DNA of 57,164 nucleotides. It comes from Prorocentrum cordatum (Eukaryota). A model generated the notes under the pieces. It saw only the letters and a list, made by a program, of their open reading frames with translations, was not told where the DNA came from and searched no databases. The stretch covers positions 62,001-119,164 of the forward strand of contig CAUYUJ010000043.1 of NCBI GenBank assembly GCA_963575745.1, written 5' to 3'. A program made the position numbers and the translations under genes. Of the stretch, positions 17,330 to 41,639 are shown in pieces (the stretch's first letter is position 1; each line of letters starts with the position of its first letter).

Positions 17330-17699
17330 GTGGAGGCCTTTCGGGGGCCTCTTGGAGCCCTCTTGGGGCGTCCTGGGGGCTTCCTGGGAGCCTCTTCGGG
17401 GCCTCTTGGGGCCTCTAAGGGGCCCTGTCCGTCGACTGCCTCCTTTGGGGGGCTCTCTGGACCGCCTTGGGGCCTTGCCTGGGCGCTCTAGGGCCGCCTC
17501 GGAGGTCTCCGGCGCCGCCTCAGGGCCCCCTTTGGGGCCGTTTCGGGAGTCGCTCGGGCTGCCTTTGGGCCCTCCTGGCCCCTCTTATGGCCCTCTTGGG
17601 GGGCTGCTGGGGCCGTCTGGGGGCCATCTTGGAGGCCATATTGGCCGTCTCGGAGGCCACCGTGGGCCACGTGGGCCCTCTTGCAGCCACCCGGGCCGG

Positions 17700-17740
<41 letters not shown>

Positions 17741-19140
17741 TAGCCTACCTCTTTTGGTGAGGCTTTGAGGGCGGCCAGTTGGATCGGCCGAGGGTTCAGG
17801 CACGCGAGATCTGGGCATGCCAGCGACTCCCTCGCGCAGGCAACAGGGATCGGCGGATCGAAGACTCCTACGGCGAATCACCGCCGCCCTCTGCCTTTCT
17901 TGAAACGCCTATGTGGCAGAACGTTGGGTTAGAGCTTGGCCAAGCTATCGGACCAGTGTTTCCCGAGTCGGTTTGGAAAGCCTTCGGGGGACACGTGGGG
18001 GAGGAGGAAGAGGAAGAGGGGGAGGAAAAAGGAGAGGGAGGAGGAGGCCTCTTGAGAGCCTCTTGAGGCACTCTTGAGCTCTATATTGGGCCATCTTGGC
18101 GGTTTCGGAGGCATGTTGGGACCGTCTTGAAGACCATATTGTGACTACCTTGCTCGTGCAGAAGGGAAAGAAGACGAAACAGATGATGAAGAGGAAGCGA
18201 AGGTGAGGGAGCCTCTTGGGTCATTCTTGGCGCGTCCTGGGAACTTCAGAGGAGTCTTTCGGAGGCATCTTGGGGCCGTCTTTTGGATCGAGGAGGAGGA
18301 GCAGGCTGGACGAGAAAGAGCAGGAGGAAGAGATTTCTTGGGAACTTCTTGGTAGCCCTCTGGAGAGGCCTCTCGGGAAGCCTCTGCGGAGCTTCCAGAG
18401 GTGTGTTGGCCATCTTGGCCCATCTTGAGCCGTCTTGGGGCCGTCTTGGGGCTGTCTTGGGGGCATCGTGGGCCATCATGGAGCCCTCTTGGGGCGGCCT
18501 GATCGAGCATGAGGCGATCTTGGGGGCCTCTTGGGCCGTCTTGGGCTGTCGAAAGGTCCAAAGGAAGCACATCCCAACATCTATCAAACACCTCAGGACA
18601 CCGATGACTTTTTGGCCTCTTCGGCCTCTCCTGGAGGACGTCTTGGAGGCCTCTGGGGCCATCTTGGAGGCACCTTGGGGCCATCTTGGTCGTCTTGGAG
18701 GACATCTTGGCTGACTAGGAGGCGTCTGGGAGGCCATCTTGGCCATCTTGGCCGCCTTGAGGACCATTTGGAGCCATCTTGGAGCCGTCTTGGGGCCGTC
18801 TTATGGGGCCTCTTGGGCCATCATGGGGCCATTTGGGAGGCCTCATGGGCGATCTTGGGGCGATCTTTAGGATCTCTTGGGCCGTCTTGGGCTGTCGGAA
18901 TGCCCAAAAGAAACACATCCCACAATCTATCAAACAACCTTGGGAACACCAATGTTGTTGGCCTCTTCGGGCTCTCCTGGAAGCCGTTTTGGAGGCCTCT
19001 TGGGCCGTCTTGGAGGCATGTTGGTGCCATCGTGGCCGTCTTGGAGGGCATCTTGGCCGTCTTGGAGGCATCTTGGAGACCATCTTGGGCCATCAGGGCG
19101 GTTTTGAAATCCATCTTGAGCCGTCTTGGGAGATTTCTTT
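17330..19140. repeat. Degenerate 10-bp-period satellite (GGCC(A/G)TCTTG / GGCCTCTTGG) with a (TA)n run at 17704-17738
   Basis: Read directly. A higher-order duplication links about 18470-18700 and 18825-19050, and a similar tract lies at 38800-39100. Confidence 0.8.
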
Positions 19141-26149: not shown

Positions 26150-27480
26150 GGGGGTGAGATCGAAGTGGAACGGAGAGCCCCCCTACTGGGAAATCGATTT
26201 CGGTTTCGCGTTCGTGCCGTGCGTGCGGGCGAGGCGAAGCTGCGTGGGCGGAGGAGAGGAAATTCTCCTGTGGCTGGGCCGCAGCTGGACCAAAAGGATG
26301 TCCGCCCGGCAACCAGTGCCGCGCGTTGTCCTGCAGGTGTTCTGCTGGCGTCCCGCTGGTGCCCCGCCGGCGCCCCGTCGTGGCAAGGCCGCGGCCGGGC
26401 CGAAAAGTTCTCCGCCAGGCAACCGGTGGCGCGCGTTGTCCCGCCGGTGTCCCGCTGGTGTCCCGCTGGTGTGCCTGTTGAGATCGACAGTGAGATCGAT
26501 AGTGAGACCGATAGTGAGATCGATAGTGAGATCTATAGTGAGAGATCGATCGTGAGATCTATAGTGATATCGATAGTGAGATCGATAGTGGGATCGATCG
26601 TGAGATCGATCGTGAGATCGATCGAGTGGGATTGATAGCGAGATCGATCGTGGAATCGACCGTGAGATGAGTAATGAGATCGAGAGCGAGATCGATAGTG
26701 ATATCGATAGCGAGATCGACAGTGGGATCGATAGTGGGATGGATCAGAGGTTGGGGGTGTGATCGAAGTGGAACGGAGAGCCCCCCACCGGGTAATCGGT
26801 TCCGGTTTCGTGTTCGTGCGTGCCGTTCGTGCGGGCGAGGCGAAGTTGCGTGGGCGGGCGAGAGGAAATTCTCCTGTGGCTGAGGCGCGGCCGGACCAAA
26901 TGATTCTCCCTCCGGCAAGCGGTGGCGCGCGGTGTCCCGCCGGTGTCCCGCTTGTGGCTGGTCCCCGGCTGGACCAAACGATTCTCCCTCCGGCAAGCGG
27001 TGGCGCGCGGTGTCCCTCCGGTGCCCCGCCGGTGTTCCGGTGTCCCGCTGGTGCGAAAACGATACTGAGACCGATGGCGAAATCGAGTGTGATAACGATA
27101 GTGAGATCGATAGTGGGACCGATAGTGAGATCGATCGTGAGATCGATAGTGAGATCGACAGTGAGATGAATAGTGATATCGATTGTGAGATCGAGCGGCA
27201 TCGATAGGGAGATCGTTAGTGGGATCGATAGCGAGACCCAAAGTGAGATCGACAGTGAAATCGATCGAGTGAGATCGATAGTGGGATCGATCGAGTGAGA
27301 TCGATACTGGGATCGATGGTCCCATCGATCGTGTGACCGATGACGGCATCGCTCGTGATATCTACAGATATATCGATAGTGAGATCGATGGTGCGATCGA
27401 TCGTGGGACCGATAACGACATCGCTTGTGAGATCGATAGAGAGATCGATCGTGATATCGATTGAGTGGGATCGATTGGTT
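26150..27480. repeat. Duplicated unit of about 600 bp containing (GAGATCGATAGT)n and (GGTGTCCCGCC)n
   Basis: 26152-26280 matches 26754-26885. GATC-rich 12-mer arrays at 26478-26745 and 27080-27475. Confidence 0.85.
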
Positions 27481-27951
27481 CCCAGGGGGGGGGGGGGGGG
27501 ATGATGCCAGGGCGCCCTGGAGCGAAGGGCGACGTGAACAATTCGACACCAAGGCTCCCAAGAGCGAGCGGCAACGCAACGATCACCACTGTTTCCCATT
27601 GCTGCCCCCCCTCCCCCCCGACCCCCTTATCACCTGCAGGGTGGTCGTATAGGTGTATATATTTGCATTTTAGAAGAGGTGAAGCCCCTTAAGGTAGAAG
27701 TAGGAAGGCTGAGCAATTAGGGAAGTTTTTTTTTTTTTTTTGTTTCTCCTTCTCCTCTTTCTGGAGAGAGAGTGCCAAAAAAACCCAAGGGCGTTTTTGG
27801 CCCCCAGACCTATGCATTTATTTGCAAAGGCATAGAAAACGAAAAAGCAGGAGGAGAGACAACAAAAAAAGGGACGACGGAGAGGGAGAAAAGAGAGAAG
27901 TGGGAACGCCAAGAGAAGAGGGAGGAGGAGGAGGAGGAGGAGGAGGAGGAG

Positions 27952-27986
<35 letters not shown>

Positions 27987-28309
27987 GGAGGAGGACAGCA
28001 AGCAGGGAGCTCAGCAGCATAGCTCAAGCGCTACCAGAGGGCCCTCCTCCCTCCCCCTCTCCCTCCCCCTCCCCCCCTCTCTCCTCCTTCCCCCCCCCCT
28101 CTCTCCCTTCCTCTCCCCCCCTCCCTCCCCCTCCCCCCTCTCCCCCTCCACGGCGGCGACGACGGCGGCGAAGACGACGACTACGACGACGACAAGCCCT
28201 GGGCCCTCGGGGGATGGCGCCGCGGTCGTCCAGCACCCCTAGGTGGGGGTGGGGACGGCAGCCCCCGAGGGTCGCAGGGTTATTTTTTAGCGCGCCACTG
28301 GCGTCTTGG

Positions 28310-28682
28310 GCGCCCTGCTCTCTGATTCCGATTGTCGAAGGCCTTTCGCGTCTTCGGCCGCCGCTGGGAGAGGGAGATTGCCGGTGCGACAAGAGATTCC
28401 AGAGAATGCACCAAGTGCATTCTTCAGTCGGCGCTGGGGGCGAGACCGGTGCACCAAGCGTGCTCTGAAGATAATTGCGCTTCAATATATTTTTATACAT
28501 ATTGCATTATATGTATCATTATCATAATCATCATTTGCGCTCTTGGCCGCCCTGCTCTCTGATTCCGATTGTCGAAGGCCTTTTGCGTCTTCGGCCGCCG
28601 CTGGGAGAGGGAGATTGCCGGTGCGACGAGAGATCTCAGAGAATGCGCCAAGTGCATTCTGAAGGTAACTGCGCTTCAATTC
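28310..28682. repeat. Direct repeat pair of about 115-135 bp upstream of the helicase gene
   Basis: CCCTGCTCTCTGATTCCGATTGTCGAAGG...CCAAGTGCATTC at about 28313-28422 and 28550-28659. Confidence 0.85.
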
Positions 28683-28867
28683 ATCTATCATAATAGAGTA
28701 TGATATGTATTATTACCATAATCTTCAGTTATTGTATCATTATCCATTTTCGTTATATGTTATCATTATTACCATTTGCCTCCTCCTCTCCTTCTCCTCG
28801 CCTCAGAGGCTCAAGCTTAGGCAGCAGACGAGTTACGCTGACTGCTTGTTGGCAATAAGGTTAGCTG

Positions 28868-31054
28868 ATGGCTAACGTCATATGCGGCGGCATGAAGACG
28901 TTGGGCGTTGTATTGGACTCGCCAGGGAAGACAAATCAAATCCTGGCAGATACGGACAAGGAAGTTACCAACAAGAAGTTGCAGTTTGCTACGGAAAATC
29001 CGACTATCAAGTGGCAGGCGCCCGTTGTGACCGAAATTTCTGATTTGCCTGTTTACCCATACCCACATGGGAACATTAATCAGAAAAACAGGTGGGTGGT
29101 TGATTGCGTTTTAGATTGGGATGGGAAGTTCGACAATGATGCACAGAATATCATCAAGCAGCTTTCAAATGATTTCCATGGAAGTAGCGAGTGGAGTGAA
29201 GGGTGGGATGGCAGTTACAATGACCATGTGAAAGGATTGATAGCTCAGCAAATGCAAACGGGCAGCTACGACAAGTTACCGCAACCGTTCGGTCCTTCGA
29301 GTTCGTGGCAAGTAGCGTGCACCATGCAGTTGGCGATTGTGCCCGCTGACGATAAGTGGCACGTGATCAAACACATTATGTTCGAAGAACAACAAAAGTT
29401 GATCAAAGTGACGGAAGAATTCGCGTGCGGAACCACTTACTGCCGCAGCTGGTGGCCTCACAACCCTTGGAGCTCTAAAAAAATATTCCAGAAGATATTC
29501 GAAGGGCTTGGTGGTTTTCAGATTCGATACGGAAAATGGCAAGGAGATGATGATGTGCAGAAGGTGGTTGATTTCAACAAAATCTCAGCCGGTTATGCAT
29601 TTATGCGCAAGATGAGGCCGTCCTCGAACAATGAAGGACAGTTCGCAGAGTGGGTGGATGTGTGGACCAAAAAACCAGGAAGCCCGATATTGGATTGGCC
29701 TGAAGCAAAGTGCAGATCGTTTTTGGAACGTTGTGCGAGAGGCGCGACAACTGCCAAAACGATTGACTTCAATTTCACCACCTACAAGGATTTGAAACCG
29801 TGGTTCTTGGATTTGGTGCTGAAAGATAAGATTACCACACATAAAGAACACGGTATTCTATGGATTGGAATTTCGGAATGCGGCAAAAGCTTGTGTTCGA
29901 GGACGCACGCTTTCATGGTGTCCAACCATTGGATAGCAGCAGAAAAGAGAGACGACGAGCAACCTGCCATCGCGACTGCCAAATTCATTGATATGTTCAG
30001 AGGCGAGCGAAACACTGTATTCAAGCCGTGTATCTTTGATGATGGACAATTCTATCAACTTGGGGCCGATCTGGTGACAGCTTTTTTATACCCCGCAGAG
30101 GTAGATGCTCTTCTATGGGCCAGATGGGGGGGCTCTGGTTTCGACATGTATTCGTGCCGCCAAGCAGCGAGTCAGCAGTGCGACAGTAAATTGGCCAAGA
30201 AACTTGCGCGCAAAGATAAAATCTCCGACAAGGATTGGCAGAAGCTCATTATGCCATCAATCGATAAAGAAGCAGACGATGAGGATTGGGTAGCATTCAG
30301 GCGTCGTTTCCACACTATTGTCATTACTCGCGAGGGAATTTTGCACCGCAATGAGACAAATGAGTTAGTGGACGTCCCCTGCATTCACTGGTCGAACGGC
30401 GAAGATATGGATATTTTCAAACCAGAGGTGAAAGAAGTTATGCAGAAATGGAAAAATGGGCAACTAAAGGGGGCTCCACCAAATTATCACGACGATGTGA
30501 AGTGGTCTTTGGAATATTTGAGCAGAGCCATGAGAGGCGAGGCGATTCCCCATTCGAGGACAATCAGGCCTTCATCTGCACGGGGCGCCAGAGGGTTATT
30601 CAATGATTCATCAATGGCATCCCAGTCATACGACCGTCCTCTATTGACGGCTGCCGGGTTTAGCTCTTTGGATCGCAGCGTGAATGCAGCTCCGATTGCG
30701 TTTTGCGGTGCCCTCGAGGACATTCAAGAAAGGCAGCGCATTCTATCAATGAAAGCAGAACCTCTCCACGGAAGCGAGTTTGATCTGACTGCCGTCACGC
30801 CGGAGAGGAAGCGCAGCAGGGCAGAGGAACCTGAGATTCCTGGCACACCCAAGAAAGAAAAGACCACGGCCGAGGCAGAACTAGCCGACGACGAGGAGAA
30901 CATGGAGAGAGTGTGGGAGGAAACTGGCACAGAGGAACTGGCCCGCGCCGTTCATGAGTCTCGCGTCAACGCGGGAATGTCTGCTGGATCTCGCCCAAGC
31001 AACCACGGTTTAGAGGAGGAGGACGTGTTTGGTCATCAGCGTGAGGGCATGTGA
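28868..31054 (+). CDS. 728-aa protein with a superfamily-3 (Rep/NS1-like) helicase domain
   Basis: Intact, intronless ORF. Walker A ILWIGISECGKS (29867-29890), Walker B PCIFDD (about 30026-30043), motif B'-like ARWG, motif C-like RQAASQ and Arg finger AFRRRF (about 30293-30310). Spacing is typical of SF3. Confidence 0.75.
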   Translation: MANVICGGMKTLGVVLDSPGKTNQILADTDKEVTNKKLQFATENPTIKWQAPVVTEISDLPVYPYPHGNINQKNRWVVDCVLDWDGKFDNDAQNIIKQLSNDFHGSSEWSEGWDGSYNDHVKGLIAQQMQTGSYDKLPQPFGPSSSWQVACTMQLAIVPADDKWHVIKHIMFEEQQKLIKVTEEFACGTTYCRSWWPHNPWSSKKIFQKIFEGLGGFQIRYGKWQGDDDVQKVVDFNKISAGYAFMRKMRPSSNNEGQFAEWVDVWTKKPGSPILDWPEAKCRSFLERCARGATTAKTIDFNFTTYKDLKPWFLDLVLKDKITTHKEHGILWIGISECGKSLCSRTHAFMVSNHWIAAEKRDDEQPAIATAKFIDMFRGERNTVFKPCIFDDGQFYQLGADLVTAFLYPAEVDALLWARWGGSGFDMYSCRQAASQQCDSKLAKKLARKDKISDKDWQKLIMPSIDKEADDEDWVAFRRRFHTIVITREGILHRNETNELVDVPCIHWSNGEDMDIFKPEVKEVMQKWKNGQLKGAPPNYHDDVKWSLEYLSRAMRGEAIPHSRTIRPSSARGARGLFNDSSMASQSYDRPLLTAAGFSSLDRSVNAAPIAFCGALEDIQERQRILSMKAEPLHGSEFDLTAVTPERKRSRAEEPEIPGTPKKEKTTAEAELADDEENMERVWEETGTEELARAVHESRVNAGMSAGSRPSNHGLEEEDVFGHQREGM

Positions 31055-31514
31055 GAAATGCAATTTGCACTGAAAGCGATTCGCGCAACTCTGCGACGCG
31101 AGTTTCAAGTCAGCTGATTGCTGACAATGTTTGTGCGTTGCAATATAATTGTATATCTTTTGATAGTTGCGAGATTGACTGCTGGTCAACTATGTATATA
31201 AATGCTGCTGCTAGCAGCGAAACTAGTGCATAACGTTGGTATGTAAATGCCGCTGCTAGCGGCGAAACTCACTCGCGTGCTTGCAAACTGTCGCTGCTAG
31301 CGATGCAGGAGAGACTCGGCTTGATATTGCGTTTAGAAAAAAAGGATAATACTTGGCAGTTCTGCTGAATCGTGTTTACGATTTCCATATCGATCAATGT
31401 CATTCTTATTTGTTGTCGCCGCAGTAGCCATCGGCTCGAAACAAATTGGCTTATTGCCAACTCTACGCAAGTTTGTGTTTTCGCAAGCTCTATATAAGTC
31501 GGCTTCTCGCCGAC

Positions 31515-32793
31515 ATGCAATACTGTACCATTGCCAAATGTTTTCGCTGTTCTTCTGTGCTTCAAGAGAAAACGGGCGCAGGCCGAGATCACGAAGCCAC
31601 GGTTTGGAACGGATCTGCTTGGGAGCGCGTTAAGCATGGAACGAAAATATGTACGAACCAGAAGTGCCGGACAATTCATAAGCTCAATTACGCTCGGTGT
31701 TATAATATGAGATTAAATTTCTTGACAAAAGACAACGTCACGGATCAAACTATTCTGTTGTTGCACCCGGGCTTGGGTTTCAGATGGTGTTATTTACGTC
31801 AACTTTGGCATCGCACGTGTCGCTCTGCTCAAGCAGCCGGAGCGGAAGCAGCAGCTATTTTGCTTACGTATCCCGATTGGAAGCCACAGTACGAGGAAAA
31901 AGGGAAAACAGAAAAGAAAAAAAGGTAATCACATGGAGAATTTTCCCGGCCGTAAGATTCACGACGCCTTGTGTTGTTATCTCAGGATTCAAGAGGAAGG
32001 CGTTTGCGATTTCGACGTTACAGATCCCGTTCCAGAGAAAGACCCTGACTACGGCGTAAAGAACGAAGGGTTCTTTGAGATCTTCAATGCGGCCAAACAT
32101 GACATAGACTTCAAGCGAAGTGGTGAGATCAATAACCCTAAAGACGTCGTTGCAGATGGGAACGAGAAGGTGACGCGCATCGTAATGGAGGACGAGAAGA
32201 AGTTCAACAAGAAATACAAGCAGAAAGGCAGACCCGTTGTAAACAAAAAGGATCGACGATGCCAGCACGTCAAAAAGGTTGCCGTAATTAAAGAGAAAAG
32301 AACCAGAATTGGAGGTCGCTGGGTTACAATGGACATGAAGAAGAGAGGCCAGGAAGGGGCCTTAAATGCAATTCTCCACTTGGGAGAGATGATGAATTGT
32401 GAATGCTCAGAATATAAGAAGGAAGCGTTGCGACAGTTAAAGAAATCTAAGATTGCAGTTCGCGATTACGTTGGAGATTGCAATTGTATGTATCACGACT
32501 GGAAAGGAACCTTGTTTTCTGGTGGATGTTATCTCGATGGGTTCCATTGGAAAAGACACAAATGTGATGCGCCTCGTTTCCCGAAGAAGAAGTCGACTTG
32601 CAATTCTCAAGCTGCCGAGCAGTTCTGGTCAAAGTTGAACAAATTGCGGTTTCTATACACAATGCGAAGAGCTCATTACAGATTTCTCCTTAGGCAGTTC
32701 TGCGTGTGGCGCAACCGATTCTGTCGTTCTGATAAGCATAGGAAGGACTACACCCCGGCAGTCAGCAAGAAGCGGGCTCGCACGGGCAAGTGA
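31515..32793 (+). CDS. CxC5-like cysteine cluster plus KDZ (Kyakuja-Dileera-Zisupton) transposase, with one extra A in the A7 run at 31917-31923
   Basis: MQYCTIAKC...HGTKICTNQKCRTIHKLNY, VVADGNEK, YVGDCNC, LDGFHWKRHKC and CNSQAAEQFWSKL...M...YRFLL...RN. Removing one A fuses the two ORFs into 425 aa. Confidence 0.8.
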
Positions 32794-33211
32794 ATAACTG
32801 GGAAATATTTCCATTCATTAAGAGAGCTGCTTGCTCTCACAAGAAAGCTTTTCGCTTTCACGTTAGGCGCTGCAAGCGCAAGAAGACTGATCGTCTTCAT
32901 ACTGACAGAGGCGCAGCCTACAACAGTTTTACTGCTCAAGTTGCGTCTCAAAAAACATCATTCATCATAATCAATATCACCATTCAGGCACATTAATTAC
33001 CATCGCTACACAGATTATCACCATTATCAATACAGTTATCATTATCCATATCATCATTATCATCATTATCGATATCATCATTCATTCATAGTGCAACGCA
33101 ATATCATGATCATAACAATGTTGTTGCGTTGCCACAGCTGCAATTGTTCTTATATTGCCGCTATATCATCCGTACCTCTCGCGGCTCGAGATATCCTCTT
33201 TGAAAGCTCTC

Positions 33212-34600
33212 ATGGAGGAGTTGCGCCGCATCATCGGAACAGCGGGGCCGGCGCCAGATGCGATCAGTAGATCTTCAAGTTGGGATTCATTTGGAGACGC
33301 TCTATGGAAAGACTTGAAGGCAAAACACAATTTAACGGTTTCGAAACAAATGCGCGAATCCAAAAAGAAAGGAGGTGGAGTAATTGGGATTTGGAAAAGT
33401 TTGTTCCCAGAGGCTGCACTCGCTCTCGAATCTGGACCCTTTGCCAAGACAAATAATCAATATTCAAACGGTGGTTCTTCTTCAGCGCATCCTCAACCAA
33501 TTGTGTACGTCCCTGTGCATTATCCATATGCTGGCAATTATTATGGGTGTCAATACGCTGGGAACTTTTATAGCGGTTATCAGACAACGCATGAAACTGG
33601 TGGACAGAGAGCAACTATTAAAGAGAGTTCTTCATCGTCTTCTTCTTCAGAGGACGAGTGCGAGGCATTTGGAGAAATCAATGCAAAGTCGAAAGGTTCA
33701 CCTCCAACCGATCACGCCGATGAGTTGGGACCAACGCAAGGGGCGCAACCAAAAAGTTTGGCGCTCAGCAGCAAGAAACGTTGTTGGGCGGATAGTTCGC
33801 AAGATGGGGATTTGTTAAGCCCGCGCAGCGAGTGCCCAATGCCACCTCCTCCTCCGCAATCCGCCGCTGCCAGTGACATTCCGCATATCGAAAAGAAGAA
33901 ATACAGTGATATTTGGCTTATCGCGGGAGATGATGCGCTGCATCCCGGTTTCTTGCAAAGCATTGAAAAGGAATCGGCTGACAACGGTTGCGCGCTCGAT
34001 CGCATCAAGCTGCCGGCAAACATTGTTCTGCACACTGGTGTGGCGTTATCTCACGTGCTGTTCTGTTTGGATGCTGGCCTCTTCGGAGAACAAGTCAAGG
34101 GCGACGCAAACGTCCACTGCGTCATTTCAGAAGGCTGCTTAAAAACGTGGCCGAGATCATATCAGTCGTCATTCAAAAACAGATTGGATAACATTAACCA
34201 TTGTCTGAGGTCCTTTGGAGTGGATGGGAAGTCGACTCGTTGGATGGAGTCAGAGGCAAAGCAAGCGAACTTCTCGCGCGAATTCCTGCTGAGAGCTTCC
34301 TTGAAAACTTTCATGGTATTAGGAGACGGACCCGTTGGCACTATAGACGTACCTGTTTACAAGGAGAGACTTTGCTGGCTTAAGAAGCGCGTGCTCTCCG
34401 AGGACAATCTCATTGAGGAGATTGTTTACGCGAACAATTACACTCCTGACACGGCGCCGAACGGCGTGAGGCTATGGCGCAACCCAGGAAGCGAGACTAA
34501 GGATATGTTGCGTGAAATTTCAATCCGATCTGGGACTGGCGCCAATGTGCTCGTAGTTGTGCTTGACCCAGCGGGCAGAGCGCTTTGCCCTAAATGGTAG
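33212..34600 (+). CDS. Hypothetical protein of about 462 aa: helical N-terminus, disordered middle, alpha/beta C-terminal half
   Basis: Long open frame of complex composition in the low-GC cassette. The first in-frame ATG is at 33212. Confidence 0.7.
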   Translation: MEELRRIIGTAGPAPDAISRSSSWDSFGDALWKDLKAKHNLTVSKQMRESKKKGGGVIGIWKSLFPEAALALESGPFAKTNNQYSNGGSSSAHPQPIVYVPVHYPYAGNYYGCQYAGNFYSGYQTTHETGGQRATIKESSSSSSSSEDECEAFGEINAKSKGSPPTDHADELGPTQGAQPKSLALSSKKRCWADSSQDGDLLSPRSECPMPPPPPQSAAASDIPHIEKKKYSDIWLIAGDDALHPGFLQSIEKESADNGCALDRIKLPANIVLHTGVALSHVLFCLDAGLFGEQVKGDANVHCVISEGCLKTWPRSYQSSFKNRLDNINHCLRSFGVDGKSTRWMESEAKQANFSREFLLRASLKTFMVLGDGPVGTIDVPVYKERLCWLKKRVLSEDNLIEEIVYANNYTPDTAPNGVRLWRNPGSETKDMLREISIRSGTGANVLVVVLDPAGRALCPKW

Positions 34601-34862
34601 ATTTCTTGGCTTGTATACTGCGACGTGCAATTACCAGAAGTGGTTGTTAGCAGTTGAATCTCTGCTCTCACCTTCTCCTCGTTCTCGCCCCAAGCTGGCT
34701 GCTCGCTAGCATTCCTAATGTAGCTGCTAGCTACACCCAAGGTAGCTGCTAGCTACCGCGCGCTTGGATAGCCCGCAGAGGAGCATCGCGAGGAAAAATA
34801 CACACCTGCGCTTCGCGCTCCATTCCGCCGTCTCCGTGGTGCTCATAGGACCTGCGGTGTTC

Positions 34863-34873
34863 TTAGTAGTAAC

Positions 34874-34929
<56 letters not shown>

Positions 34930-34992
34930 GTAGTAGTAGTAGTAGACTGGTCGTAGTAGTAGTAGTAGTAGTATAAGTAGTAGTAAGTAGTC

Positions 34993-35038
<46 letters not shown>

Positions 35039-35092
35039 TAGTATTGGTAGTAGTAATAGTGGCAGTAGAGAGACAAGAGGGGTAGACAGAGA

Positions 35093-35140
<48 letters not shown>
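34863..35140. repeat. (TAG)n and (GA)n microsatellites
   Basis: Read directly from the sequence. Confidence 0.95.
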
Positions 35141-35145
<5 letters not shown>

Positions 35146-35208
35146 GCCGCAGCCACCGGGCTCAAATCTACAAGCCGAGAAGACTAACCAACTGCTGGTT
35201 GGTTACGT

Positions 35209-36129
35209 ATGAAAACATTAGGCGCAGCCTCTTCAATGGATTCAAGTGATGGCAACAAATGGAATTGTGGAACGCAAGCCAGAGATTTTGAGAGACTCAT
35301 ATTGACAGATTTGGAACAGCAGCCAAAACCAACCAGTAGCTTTGGACCAATAACAGTGAACGCAGTAGGGGAATTGGACCCAACGGTGCCATGGTTGGAA
35401 CGAGCACAGAAGTTGTATGATGTCACTAATCAGAATTTGAAAGTTTTGTGCGACGCAGGCGCGGCAGGGCCTTTCTATAATGTGTCTGGGTTCAGCTGCA
35501 AGCAGTTTTTACCTTTTGACGAATTCGCAAAGGCGTGGAATTACAGATGCGGTCTAGTATTTTGGGGAAGCCCCCATTGGGGAAGCGGAAATGATGAGAC
35601 TACACAGGAGTGGAAGGACTCGGCGCAGTTCAAAACAAACGCATGGGAAAGTATGGCATGGCTAGCGGAGTCAGCGTGCATAATGATGGCGTTTCATGCA
35701 TGCTACAAAGTGGAATTCTGGAATCCAAGCTATTCAAAAGCAGGCTCGGACGCAGACACGCGCGCAAAGCGACAGTTGGTGGTGGCACCAGCGTACTTTT
35801 GAAGCTACGCGCCCATAAAATCTGGCAACATATACAGTGAGATTAACTCGTACAGGAACATACCGGTGATGATCGCATTACTGGTGCCGGCTCGTTTCAA
35901 AGATCTGACTACCTACCACGACGGCATACAAATTGACGTGGGAATGACAATGTTCAAAATATATCAACATTTGCACTTGCAAGATGAACATGCAATAGAG
36001 CTTGGAGGTCAAACATTTGCATTATCAATGGAATTGCATTTGGCAAAGGAGGAACTGCTTGAAACGAAAAAAGCACAGCTGCGCATGGAAATGAATGATC
36101 CAGTTGCAATGAATGTGGACAGCTCATAA
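35209..36129 (+). pseudogene. Hypothetical protein of about 306 codons with one internal TGA (35800-35802)
   Basis: ORFs 35209-35802 and 35866-36129 are in the same frame with no other stop between them. Confidence 0.6.
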
Positions 36130-36404
36130 TCGTTAGCGCTTGATTTGCGCGTAGAATAACACTCGCAATATCTCCTCCATCTCCTCTCCGATCTCTTCCT
36201 ATGCTGGCTGCTCGCTAGCATTCCCAAGGTAGCTGCTAGCTACCACGTGCTTAGATTCCCAGCAGAGAAAACGCGTGTTCGCAGAAACAAAACAATGAAA
36301 ATAACATAACATTTCTTTTGATCGTGCAGATTTCCACGCTTTCCGCCCTCTTCCGCCGTCTCCGCGGTGCTCATAGGATCTGTTGTAGATGCAGGCATTG
36401 CGGT

Positions 36405-37410
36405 TTCCCCCTTCTGTATTCCGCAGCAGAGGTAATTCTTGTGTATGTCATCACAAAAGGAATTCCTTTGTATTCCGCAACAAAAGAAATCCTTTTGAAT
36501 TTCGCCACAAAAGGAATTCCTTTGTCTTCTGTCACGAGAATTCTTTTGTATCGTACCGCAAAAGGAATCCGTTCGTATTCCGCCACAAAGTTAATCCTTT
36601 CGTATTCAGCCACAAAGGAAATCCTTTTGTATTCCGCCACAAAAGGAATCCCTTTGTATTCCGCCACAAAGGGAATTCTTTTGTATTCAGCTACAACGGG
36701 AATTCTTTTGTATTCAGCCACAAAGGGAATCCTATTGTAATTAATATAGATGCTGTAAACATTGTGTTTTCACAGAGATTCAGAGAATTTCAATAAAAAC
36801 AATGAAAAACAATTTGTTTCATTTGTGTTTTCACAGAGATTCAGAGATTTTTCATTGAAAATATTGTTTTTTCATTGCCAGGCACAGAGATCTCAGAGAT
36901 TTTAATGATTTTCCAACTATGGAGGATAGTTTTTTATGAAATCTGTGTGAAAACACAATGTTTTCTTTGATTTTTGAATAGAAAACCAAAGAAAACCTTG
37001 TGTTTTCACAGAGATTTCATAACAAACTATCTTCCATAGTTGGAAAATCATTAAAATCTCTGAGATCTCTGTGCCTGGCAATGAAAAGACAATATTTTTG
37101 TTTTTATTAAAAATCTCTGAATCTCTGTGAAAACACAGATAAAACCAATTGTTTTTTAGTGTTTTCTTTAAAATTCTCTGAATCTCTGTGAAAACACAAT
37201 GTTTCAATATCTATACGAATTACAATAGCATTCCTTTTGTAGCGGAATACAAAGGAATTCCTTTTGTGGTGGAATACAAAGGATTTCTTTTTGTAGTGGA
37301 ATACAAATAGAATCTTTGGTAACGGAATGCAAAAGGATTTTCTTTTGTGGCAGAATACAAACGAATTGCCTTTGTGATGGAGTACTAAGGAATTCTCCAA
37401 GGAATTCCTC
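36405..37410. repeat. AT-rich foldback palindrome of about 1 kb, centred near 36978, with 30-bp tandem repeats in the outer arms
   Basis: 36871-36923 is the exact reverse complement of 37033-37085. TTGTATTCCGCCACAAAAGGAAT units on the left are mirrored by TTCCTTTTGTGGTGGAATACAAA units on the right. Confidence 0.92.
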
Positions 37411-37474
37411 TTACAAATAAATGCATAGGGAGGGTGCCAAAAAAGCCGCCAGGCTTTTTTGGCCCCCTCTATGT

Positions 37475-38200
37475 CTTTCTGCCCGAGGTTTTTGGAATTG
37501 CCAGCAACTTGGCCAGCCGACTGGTCGCGCCCATCGCCTGGGGCGTGATTTGCGCGAATAAGTTGGTTCGGAATTTGTTGGCGACGGCCGGTCGGGGAGT
37601 CGCAGTCTGGGCTTGAGATCCCGAGCGCTTCGCCTTCGCCACCTTCTCGGGCGCAGGTGGAGTGGGATTCCGAGCCCGCCTGCGCGACCCCCGAGGACTC
37701 CCAGGAGACCCCGCCCAGGCAGCGTGGATGATCCTCGCTGCCGATTCGGATCGGTCTCGGAAGAGGGCGTCTCGAGTGTCTATCCTGGGGTGGAGGCCAT
37801 GTCAGTTAAAGCGGAAGGTGCCTTGTACCTTAGCGGGAGAAGCGCTATCGCTGTCAGCAGCAGTAGCAGAGGTAGAATACATGCAGGTGTTATTTCGCGA
37901 TGTTGTGCTTCATGATGATGATGTTCCTGACTGCAGGAGCCTCTGGTCCGTTTACCACTATCTTGAGATCGGAGCGGTACAAAGGAAATGGTCGGGAGAC
38001 CCAGCTTCATGTAGTAGACGCTAAATCAGCGTATGACATGACGCACAAGGAGGGCAACGCCAGCTCCAAGGACAGGCGCACGGCGTTGGAGCTTGCTATT
38101 ATATCACAGTCATGGGACAAAAATCAGAGGGGTCTTCCGGTGAGTAGCCCGCATTCGGATGATCGTAGATTCCATGACCCAAGGCGACACTAGCAAGTCC
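37475..38200 (+). pseudogene. Copia RT C-terminus and RNase H, resuming after the insertion
   Basis: PEVFGIASNLAS...ANKLVR, LGWRPCQLKR...TLAGEALSL, LHVVDAKSAYD, DRRTALELAII and MIVDSMT. Confidence 0.85.
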
Positions 38201-38654: not shown

Positions 38655-39673
38655 AGGGGGGGTCTTTTTGGAAAAGGACCTAAAACCATAAACGATAAAG
38701 TTCACCACGCCAGGCACCCCTGTGATGAATCAACAGGGGGCGGCGGATCTACTGGCCGCAGGCCCAACCCGCCACCGTGTTTGCTTGGGTTTGTGCCAGG
38801 GGCGTCTCGGGCGCCAGTCGGGATTTCTTGGGGTGCCCCCCTGGAGCTTCTTGGGGGGCCTCCCTCTTGGAAGCAAGCTGTACGACTCAAGTTGATCCCA
38901 GTGGCGTCGGTCTTTCGTGACCAGGTTGTGGGTCAAAGGCTCTTGGGGTCTCTTGGGATGTTTCTTTGGGCCTCCTTGGGGTCTATTGGGGGCATCTGGG
39001 TGGGCCTTTTGTGGGCCTCTGGGGGGCCTCCTGGCGTTTTCCTGGAGCGCATTGGGGCCCTCGCGGGCCTTCTCGAGAGGTCCGCGGCGGTCTCGGAAGG
39101 CCATTTCGTTTCAACATGACTCCAGGGCACAACCGTGGTAACACCCTTCGGGTCTAAGCCTTTTTGAGGAGGATGTCTTGAGCGAAGCTGCCAGTTTGTA
39201 GCTTCTGAATAATCGCCCGGGGAACCCCATGAGCGCGCGGGAATGCCAATGGGCGCCCCGACGTCGGGGCTTCGGGCCACGCAAACAGCGTTCTATGTTC
39301 TATACAGGCTGCCTGTAGCTGGCACGCCGCCCGGCCGTGGCGGCCGCTTTCCGCTGCTGACTCGAGGCTATGTTTAGGAAATCCAGCGTTCGCTAGGGAC
39401 TGGTTTCCTTTCCAAACAGCCGAAGCCCTCCCGAAACCCTGCGAAAACTCTCCGGGAGGGGCTCTTGGAGGCTCTTCGGAGAGTTTCGGGAGGGTCTTGG
39501 AAGGGTTTCCGTCGTCCTCGGGGGGCGCCAGTCCCTAGCGAACCCTGGGCTTTTTAAGGCTATGTGCCACTGGCGCGCCCGTAGCGGCAAGGCCACGGGT
39601 GCTTCGGCCAGCGCGCCCGCCTCTGCTGCACCCGGCACCTGAGGACACTCCACTTCGTGCTTCGGGGCGCGGT

Positions 39674-40040: not shown

Positions 40041-40199
40041 TAAGTCGGGCCTGTCCCTCTACAGGAGGAATCTTCAAATCTAGTCAAACAAAATAGTCAA
40101 GGGATGATTTGTCGACTCTTCTTGCATATTGTTGAATGTGTTTTGAGTATTTTTGATTTTTCGTCCAAACTCCGCTTGTAAGAGGACATGCCCGACCGA
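40041..40199. mobile_element. MITE-like element, copy 3
   Basis: TAAGTCGGGCCTGTCCCTCTACAGG ... CTTGTAAGAGGACATGCCCGACC. Confidence 0.75.
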
Positions 40200-40253
40200 A
40201 CTCCAGACGGCCGGGGGGTGGCGACTGGGGCGCCGCCTCGATCGGTCACCCAG

Positions 40254-40427
40254 CGCTCCCCGTCTGGGGCTCCCTCATGCAGTTCTACAGCCCCCGGGAG
40301 CTGATGACGTTCGGCTGCGTGCTGTGGGGCCTGGCCACGCTGCTGCTGGCTGCGGCCTCGAGCTACGAGGTGCACCTCGCCTTGCGTCTGGTGGCTGGGG
40401 CAGCCTTGGCGAGCGTTGCACCCGTCG
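40254..40427 (+). CDS. MFS transporter exon (ALPVWGSLMQFYSPRELMTFGCVLWGLAT...LALRLVAGAALASVAPVG)
   Basis: CAG acceptor at 40251-40253. Encodes the TM2-TM4 region with the R...G motif. GA donor at 40428. Confidence 0.8.
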
Positions 40428-41639
40428 GACGTCCACGGCCAGAACAGGTCCAGATCCACCGCGTCGGGGTCGTTCCCACCCAGACCCAGAGATCTAACGT
40501 TTTGAGAAAGTCAAGCCGAATGGTTTTCGCCGTAGGAGCCCTCGTCTGGCCCCGTGACAATCAAAAACGCCGAGTCTGGATGGAACGCTGGTCCTGGGGA
40601 GTGGGTCCAGACCTCAGGGGACCCCGTCTTGAAAACAAGCAGGACATCAGCTTCCTAAAACATATGGGGCGTTCCAAGCAGGGCCTTACCTTCGAGGATC
40701 GAAGGAGTTGTCGTCTCTTCCGCGGCGGAAGGCGGCGGAACGGCGGCGGCAGGTCGGCTGAAGTAGAGCGAGGCCGCCCCCGCTGGCGGAAGCCTGCGGA
40801 AGCTCGGCCGAAGGCGGCGGAAGTAAAGCATGAGGACCCAAGAGATGAACACGTTCTTGGGTTCAGGGTCTCCGACGTCGCCCATCTGGAACATGTGGGG
40901 AAACGAAGGGGAAGACGGGCATCCAGAAAACTGTGCAGCACCGAGTGGAAGTCCTGGAGCTCGTGTCTGGTCCTCCCTGCGTCTCCCCAGGCCCCTTGAA
41001 CGTCGCATCTCTTGGGGGCCGCGCCGGGGTCGTGGCCCGGGGGAAGAGGAGAAGGAGGAGGAGGAGGAGGAGAAGGAGGAGGAGGAGAAGGAGGAGGAAG
41101 AGAAGGAGGAGGAGGAGGAGGAGGAGGAGGGGGAGGAGGAGGAGGAGGAGGAGGAGGAGGAGGAGGAGGAGGAGGAGGAGGAGGAGGAGGAGGAGGAGGA
41201 GGAGGCTCGAGGGGAGTCGTGGCTGTGGGTGCCTGTGCCTGCCCGCCCCCCCAGGCGGGCGGGCGGGCCCCTGTGCAACCGCGCCCCCCCCCGCTCCCAG
41301 GCCTTCCCCTGGGGCCAGGCCTCGAGAGGCCGTGTCGGGAGCCTTGAGACTCTAGAGGCCTCCTACCCAGAGATCCAACGGTTTGAAAAGAAACAAGACG
41401 GAGGTTTCTCTCAAGGCCCCTCCTAGGCCCGCGTCTTGGAGTGTGCCCAGGAACCCAGAGACCCAACGCATTGAACAAATCAAGACGGAGTTTTTTCGCA
41501 ATTTTCGGTCTCTAGGGGCCCTCGCCAGGCCCCGGGACCGTCAAAAAATGACTCAGGATGAAAAACCGGTCCTGGGGAATGGATGGAGACTTCGGGTGAT
41601 CTCGTATTGAAAACAAACACGACATCGGGTCTCTGGGTA

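Follow-up and report, generated by a model that had tools for sequence, protein, structure and literature searches.

Leader-like motifs precede all four genes of a DNA transposon in a Prorocentrum cordatum contig

Dinoflagellates add a short spliced leader (DinoSL) to every mRNA, and relict leaders in their genomic DNA are an accepted fossil of mRNA recycling. In Symbiodinium, relict DinoSL copies are reported before ~23% of genes, are best kept at -50 to -100 bp and are detected by an exact leader match of at least 9 nt within 500 bp upstream (PMC5585692). DinoSL has also been reported before virus-derived genes in Symbiodiniaceae genomes, in 13 of 59 cases in one study (Benites et al. 2022, PMC9651163) and in 6 of 26 cases in a second (Veglia et al. 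2023, PMC10235124). We analyzed a 57,164-nt stretch of Prorocentrum cordatum DNA (contig CAUYUJ010000043.1, positions 62,001 to 119,164; hereafter the window), which contains a mobile element of 9,710 bp at 27764-37473 with four co-oriented genes. A leader-like motif, or tag, lies before each of these genes. On balance, and by a modest measure, we favor the view that the four motifs are decayed DNA copies of a trans-spliced leader (relict DinoSL or a close variant) that arose by mRNA recycling and are now carried in a 9.7-kb DNA transposon.

The arrangement has clear parallels with the described systems. As in the relict DinoSL genes of Symbiodinium, the motifs lie on the coding strand, no more than 100 nt before the start of intron-free genes, and are partially decayed, as is usual there (PMC5585692). 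Unlike those relicts, they have a multi-gene transposon with terminal inverted repeats (TIRs) and a target-site duplication (TSD) as their carrier, all four of its genes are tagged, the 9-nt exact match is absent, the T-run of the leader is lost and poly(A) relics are not evident. The virus-derived genes are likewise foreign or mobile genes with an upstream leader, a feature interpreted as evidence of retro-copying (PMC9651163, PMC10235124). Those genes, however, are single, of RNA-virus or giant-virus origin, situated near retroelements and mostly interrupted by introns, whereas here a cut-and-paste element that encodes its own transposase carries a tag before each of its four genes. Read as relics, the motifs are a known kind of molecular fossil in a new or unusual carrier. 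Among the matches listed in a literature search on the dinoflagellate spliced leader and transposons, judged by titles and abstract openings, none concerned tagged transposons.

With the 21-nt DinoSL as the reference leader for scoring, the motif of gene 1 (28796-28815, + strand) matches at 14 of 21 positions with one gap and carries an exact GGCTCAAG at its end (28808-28815); a pyrimidine tract and CAG precede it. The gene 2 motif (31418-31440, + strand) also has a pyrimidine tract upstream and reads CCGCAG followed by TAGCCATCGGCTCGAA; its aligned part, 31422-31440, has 15 of 21 matches and includes GTAGCCATCGGCTCGAA at 31424-31440. The motif of gene 3 (33170-33190, + strand; CCGTACCTCTCGCGGCTCGAG) is gapless over the full 21 nt, with 14 matches, and ends in GGCTCGAG (33183-33190), and that of gene 4 (35147-35166, + strand; CCGCAGCCACCGGGCTCAAA) has 15 of 21 matches with one gap and (GTA)n and (GA)n runs directly upstream. 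The longest exact DinoSL runs in motifs 1-4 are 8 (GGCTCAAG), 8 (GTAGCCAT), 5 and 7 nt. The initial annotation, from which this analysis started, had given the letters and positions of GGCTCAAG, GTAGCCATCGGCTCGAA, GGCTCGAG and CCGCAGCCACCGGGCTCAAA exactly. It was also right in placing the ATGs at 28868, 31515, 33212 and 35209, which leaves gaps of 52, 74, 21 and 42 nt from motif end to start codon, and in noting a pyrimidine-rich stretch and CAG before GTAGCCATCGGCTCGAA.

The form of the motifs bears on what they are. The pattern GGCTCRAR (R, purine), defined post hoc, has four occurrences in the element; all are on the + strand, with none on the - strand, and all coincide with these motifs. 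GT directly follows none of the four, so they resemble relics of a leader joined to an untranslated region rather than leader RNA genes. Because two or three of the tags follow a pyrimidine tract with AG, and all lie 21-74 nt before an ATG, they are probably located at or just downstream of the trans-splice acceptor of each gene. Duplication of one leader module is an unlikely source, as the upstream regions of the four genes share no homology beyond the motif.

To judge the motifs against chance we used two alignment schemes. In the first, local Smith-Waterman alignment to the leader with pre-chosen scoring, the best scores in the 100 nt upstream of genes 1-4 were 16, 19, 14 and 19 (sum 68). 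The window's + strand has 159 scores of at least 14, ~9% of 100-nt intervals reach at least 16, and scores of at least 19 are found at seven other places, both strands together. For the sum of 68, random positions gave P = 3e-4 and a set of 3000 permuted leaders gave P = 0.001, with per-gene decoy P values of 0.11, 0.021, 0.37 and 0.005. The idea of a leader relic before each gene is thus upheld at this level for genes 2 and 4, where the short local matches exceed chance, but not for genes 1 and 3, where they are at noise level. The second scheme aligned the whole leader end to end, under scoring that was chosen after the data had been seen (the gapless match of gene 3). It gave scores of 6, 7, 7 and 8, corresponding to 14, 15, 14 and 15 of 21 matches, and the best alignments in the four upstream segments stop exactly at 28815, 31440, 33190 and 35166. 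For a sum of at least 28, random four-segment sets from the window's entire + strand gave P = 8e-6, and the background of the element itself gave 1.2e-5; this sum was reached in 0 of 500,000 sets on the - strand and by 0 of 3000 composition-matched permuted-leader decoys, the per-gene decoy P values being 0.054, 0.024, 0.034 and 0.0037. The four-of-four positional consistency on which the initial annotation relied is therefore jointly above chance (P ~1e-5 against positions), and the observation is confirmed as real and non-random when the four motifs are taken together.

These figures leave little room for pure coincidence, in which a leader-seeking reader would have picked out four unrelated weak matches. 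Local scoring does put two of the four at noise (P = 0.11 and 0.37), other peaks of similar score exist in the element, and the end-to-end scoring was selected with the data in view. Nevertheless, we regard coincidence as very improbable, given P values of 3e-4 to 1e-3 under the pre-chosen scoring and ~1e-5 end to end, and given that all four motifs stand on the coding strand, 21-74 nt from an ATG. Elsewhere in the window, a degenerate GGCCRTCTTGG-type satellite (17500-19130 and 38780-39060) yields many spurious local leader matches because it shares the leader's GCCA...TGGC palindrome. Other high local scores were assigned to this satellite (17.5-19.1 kb) and to coding DNA (43104) and rejected as relics.

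The carrier of the motifs has well-defined ends. A left TIR (27764-27829, + strand) consists of a hairpin, GCCAAAAAA...TTTTTGGC, followed by CCTATGCATTTATTTGCAA, and is matched by a right TIR (37411-37473, - strand), each ~60 nt long. Adjoining these repeats are the two copies of an 8-bp TSD, TCTTTCTG, at 27756-27763 and 37474-37481; the window contains just three copies of this 8-mer, including the two that abut the inverted repeats. TIRs with a flanking TSD are the signature of a cut-and-paste DNA transposon insertion, in agreement with the initial description of a DNA-transposon-like unit. The guanine-plus-cytosine (GC) content is 43-51% at 28-38 kb, compared with 57-68% in the surroundings.

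These boundaries have consequences for the history of the motifs. Because the tags lie inside a transposon bounded by TIRs and a TSD, they travel with the element and were not made at the present locus; we infer that they are part of the element and that its transposition copies them too. The open reading frames (ORFs) are nearly intact, with one frameshift and one stop in ~5.8 kb, while the tags are ~30% diverged from the leader, which argues that the tags are older than this insertion. All four genes are intron-free, processed gene bodies. Genes 1 and 3 each consist of a single ORF, the interruption of gene 2 is due to a 1-nt frameshift, and gene 4 keeps one frame throughout but contains an internal stop. 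Homolog N-termini back the starts assigned to genes 1, 2 and 3.

In the model that we favor, mRNAs of the element would receive the leader in a host that performs leader trans-splicing, either a dinoflagellate or a close relative. Some of these leader-bearing mRNAs would then be reverse transcribed and recombined back into a copy of the element, the process called mRNA recycling. The leader would thereby become element DNA before each gene and could subsequently be copied by transposition while decaying. In this scheme the leader origin, the retro-copying, the trans-splicing and the type of host are putative. The initial annotation had gone further, proposing that trans-spliced retrocopies had built or refreshed the unit and that its genes may share a single transcript which trans-splicing resolves; this proposal is compatible with dinoflagellate biology and is plausible, if unproven.

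Distant relatives of the element provide an independent view of the tags. Gene 1 encodes a P-loop nucleoside triphosphatase (NTPase), and we compared seven distant NTPase loci from metagenome contigs (L001-L007), which are 21-27% identical to it. One of these, the marine contig L004 (24% NTPase identity), carries two tags, one before each of its genes, and they are clearer than those in the window. The first matches the leader at 17 of 21 positions, including the T-run, follows a microsatellite and lies 86 nt before the likely NTPase ATG; its end-to-end score is the best of any locus. The second follows a pyrimidine tract and precedes the next ORF. Their locus-wide decoy P values are 0.005 and 0.0025, and the same C-to-A change is common to both. 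The second ORF of L004 (2553-4118) is split by an in-frame TAA at 2796-2798 and has a weak match to an IS1595-type DDE (Asp-Asp-Glu) transposase (E = 0.005), which suggests that the NTPase can be paired with a different transposase type. No relatives of genes 2-4 were found beside the seven NTPases by tblastn, and a profile search of these loci with the gene 2 family also found none. Leader-like matches in L006, L001 and L003 fall inside ORFs and were set aside as coincidences of coding sequence. In L001 (897-919) and L003 (1283-1304), the resemblance is to the leader's 3' half and comes from codons for P(I/L)WHK, a peptide conserved in the NTPase family, which calls for caution when coding sequence is scanned with the leader.

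Several observations weigh against a relict leader. Each motif alone is weak, and a single motif proves nothing; six other + strand peaks with scores of at least 6 occur elsewhere in the element. None of the four motifs contains a 9-nt exact DinoSL match, so the published rule for detecting relicts does not recognize them. The window holds no full leader (none within 3 mismatches) and no leader RNA gene. Poly(A) relics were not evident in a scan of the element for A-runs: of nine runs of at least 6 nt, four fall within coding sequence, and the 3' flanks account for only two (31337 and 32950). Coding sequence can mimic the leader, as it does at 17 of 20 positions inside an ORF of L006 and through the P(I/L)WHK peptide in L001 and L003. 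Among the relatives with a readable 5' region, L002 and L007 have no significant tag, leaving L004 as the only clear case. Finally, the decay is uneven. Across the four tags, matches number 28 of 36 at leader positions 1-9, 2 of 16 at positions 10-13 (TTTT), 20 of 20 at positions 14-18 (GGCTC) and 8 of 12 at positions 19-21. The T-run thus differs strongly from the remainder (2 of 16 compared with 56 of 68; Fisher P = 2.6e-7), a contrast inflated because the alignment puts its gaps in the T-run. Symbiodinium relicts are reported to show the opposite bias and to retain TTT(T/G) preferentially (PMC5585692).

Part of this unevenness could trace to the leader itself. Perkinsus-type leaders carry C in the T-run (PMC3101222), and they fit all four tags as well as or better than DinoSL does: end-to-end scores for genes 1-4 are 7, 9, 9 and 10 with PmaSL1 and 6, 11, 8 and 12 with PmaSL2, compared with 6, 7, 7 and 8 with DinoSL, gene 1 being a tie at 6 between PmaSL2 and DinoSL. 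The source leader may therefore have been a variant, or the ends of the tags may be under constraint. Uneven decay also leaves room for a functional motif, of which two forms deserve consideration.

One is that the motifs never derived from a leader and instead represent an upstream box native to the element, serving as a promoter, an initiator or a site for protein binding, with the core GGCTCRAR and an accidental likeness to the leader. The invariant part is indeed short (GGCTC plus purines), all four motifs lack the T-run, the leader's most typical part, and GC-rich coding DNA yields leader-like strings by chance. This explanation does not, however, account for the 5' halves, which match at 28 of 36 of positions 1-9 and keep CCGYA (Y, pyrimidine) at the correct spacing in three of four motifs, the gene 3 motif being gapless. 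Moreover, 0 of 3000 composition-matched decoys do as well, and the 17-of-21 tag of L004 includes the T-run. We consider an unrelated box distinctly unlikely.

The other form is a motif that is leader-derived but now working, in which selection keeps a bipartite box (CCGYAG ... GGCTCRAR) before every gene after removal of the Sm-site-like T-run. Such a box could supply each gene with its own trans-splice acceptor or enhancer, or with a 5' end that looks like that of a host mRNA, and it would let a mobile element be expressed where all mRNAs need a leader. The strongly uneven conservation (GGCTC in 20 of 20, positions 1-9 in 28 of 36, T-run in 2 of 16; P = 2.6e-7) would follow naturally, as would the placement of two or three tags after pyrimidine tracts with AG. 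The tags of L004 also fit, since a neutral ancestral relic should have vanished between elements whose NTPases are only 24% identical. By contrast, L004 keeps the T-run that the tags of the window have lost, so that no common functional consensus emerges; recurrent fresh capture of leaders accounts for L004 equally well; and the placement of alignment gaps in the T-run exaggerates the difference on which the argument from conservation depends.

Giant viruses offer an instructive comparison. We found the exact 21-nt DinoSL in viral contigs, mostly giant-virus bins, as 139 copies in 119 loci (L008 onward in our numbering). An A precedes 132 of the 139 copies, an AT-rich box recurs upstream and the first ATG lies mostly 30-59 nt downstream; the mean GC content of the 119 loci is 27%. 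Among the matches listed in literature searches, no paper dealt with exact DinoSL cassettes in giant-virus contigs. These copies establish that a DNA-encoded leader before mobile-element genes exists, a point in favor of a working box in the transposon, and the transposon tags resemble them in standing a few tens of nucleotides before the ATGs of mobile-element genes. Unlike the viral cassettes, however, the transposon tags are degenerate, contain no exact leader and have no AT-rich box in their upstream regions. The viral leaders are letter-perfect, whereas the tags here are ~30% diverged and differ between the four genes, a contrast that favors a decaying relic over a working mimic for the transposon. 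Taking both sides together, we view a working box as a tentative and rather unlikely alternative. In a broader version, a family of DNA transposons in alveolates that trans-splice a leader could keep the leader-derived box (CCGYAG ... GGCTCRAR) before every gene as a functional module. This portable trans-splice acceptor or host-mRNA look-alike would allow expression of the element at any landing site and would be renewed by recurrent recycling through complementary DNA. Such a module would parallel the exact DinoSL cassettes of giant-virus contigs, but we think its existence quite doubtful.

If the motifs are relict leaders, there are several implications. First, genes of a DNA transposon would pass through the host's loop of trans-splicing and retro-copying, and the resulting leader tags would then spread by DNA transposition. 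Second, because tags spread in this way, leader-based counts of 'retrogenes' could take in genes that did not arise by retro-copying where they now lie. Third, the element would offer a handle on how multi-gene mobile elements express each gene in organisms where every mRNA needs a leader. Finally, if the tags are under selection, they would represent a compact natural expression signal for organisms that are hard to engineer.

The genes themselves are conserved yet difficult to place. Gene 1 (28868-31054, + strand) encodes 728 amino acids, with a Walker A motif of the form GxxxCGKS and a Walker B motif DD, ~50 residues apart. It has six relatives among metagenome proteins, in which the Walker A and B residues are invariant; the family's invariant residues are G334, G339, K340, D391, D392, R419 and R431. 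The position of motif C is presumed. The protein matches nothing in Pfam, PHROGs, NCBIfam or the PDB sequences, and one relative has a faint PF00910 match (E = 0.061). The earlier label of a superfamily 3 (SF3) helicase is thus not confirmed by these four resources.

Gene 2 (31515-32793, + strand; ~420 amino acids) is a candidate DDE transposase resembling the Kyakuja-Dileera-Zisupton (KDZ) group. A one-base shift of its frame falls at some point within the A-rich segment 31893-31935: homologs follow one frame as far as 31892 and continue in the next one from 31936. We considered a 61-nt GT-AG intron at 31925-31985 and rejected it, as homologs align through this stretch. The family comprises proteins of ~430 residues in 128 representative clusters. 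The KDZ domain PF18758 is matched by 15 of 129 family sequences at E <= 0.01 (best 1.9e-5), and the three matches with displayed scores reach 16-21 bits, below the 26.6-bit cut-off. The KDZ-associated CxC5 cluster (PF18718) is matched by 5 of 129 (best 8e-5), also below threshold and in the expected order, and no other Pfam family recurs among the 129 sequences. D57, D184 and E211 are invariant in 17 family sequences, with neighboring Cys and His residues, and we infer from this alignment that they form the catalytic DDE triad. The KDZ label of the initial annotation therefore stands as a remote likeness at the level of the family, but not for the gene 2 protein itself, which has no Pfam match at E <= 10. 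The element resembles KDZ transposons in these sub-threshold PF18758 and CxC5 matches, in its conserved D, D and E columns and in its TIRs and 8-bp TSD, a TSD length that fits Zisupton. It differs from them in that its candidate transposase is short and without a Pfam match of its own, and in having an NTPase and two unknown proteins as partners. Among the matches listed in a literature search, no relevant paper linked KDZ elements to dinoflagellates.

Gene 3 (33212-34600, + strand; 462 amino acids) encodes a conserved protein without an assigned family. It has eight relatives, and its only Pfam match is a sub-threshold one to Dehydrin (E = 0.035; 15 bits against a 30.6-bit cut-off). The records P0141 and P0152 both give 8,495 nt as their longest contig, and linkage of genes 1 and 3 is conceivable there. 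Gene 4 (35209-36129, + strand) is one frame of 197 and 108 amino acids split by an in-frame TGA at 35800-35802, and limited searches found no relatives. ESM Atlas queries for genes 3 and 4 gave nothing usable. The gene 2 frameshift and the gene 4 TGA could reflect either a decaying copy or assembly errors. A collection of viral contigs yielded no relatives for either of genes 1 and 2, and a viral origin was rejected on this basis; a collection of prokaryote genomes contained none either.

Clusters of short perfect hairpins follow each stop codon, with 13 hairpins in 1,757 nt of spacer compared with 2 in 5,776 nt of coding sequence. Short perfect hairpins, including GCTGCTGCTAGCAGC and GCCGCTGCTAGCGGC, occupy 31109-31263 (+ strand) after gene 1, and four more lie at 32801-32898 (+ strand) after gene 2. 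The 3' module after gene 3 has two GTAGCTGCTAGCTAC hairpins at 34719-34757 (+ strand) and recurs after gene 4 at 36178-36382 with 83-87% identity, including a hairpin at 36228-36244. These post-stop clusters may be 3'-end signals. Two further perfect hairpins are found near start codons: one at 31498-31514, with a 6-bp stem, directly abuts the ATG of gene 2, and one at 35185-35205, with an 8-bp stem, ends 3 nt before the ATG of gene 4.

The non-coding arms of the element contain additional repeats. In the left arm, a tandem duplication (28304-28423 and 28541-28660) has 95% identity; the second copy ends in ...CTGAAG|GTAAC, with the pyrimidine tract and CAG that precede the gene 1 tag ~140 nt downstream, and this arrangement may represent a leader exon together with an intron or outron. 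The right end has, on its inner side, a foldback of ~1 kb (36410-37400) that consists of inverted arrays of 27-nt sub-repeats centered near 36978, the inner arms showing 95% complementarity. This structure could belong to the end of the element, or it could be a nested insert, either a foldback or one resembling a miniature inverted-repeat transposable element. Scans of the whole window for Rfam families and tRNAs gave no matches. The DNA directly left of the insertion site (26480-27470) is a long tandem repeat with a 12-nt unit, of the (GAGATCGATAGT)n type. A Pfam scan of 96 ORFs in the flanks returned nothing credible other than a fragment of an MFS transporter at 40157-40996 (E = 1.1e-7), the only recognizable host-like coding piece there.

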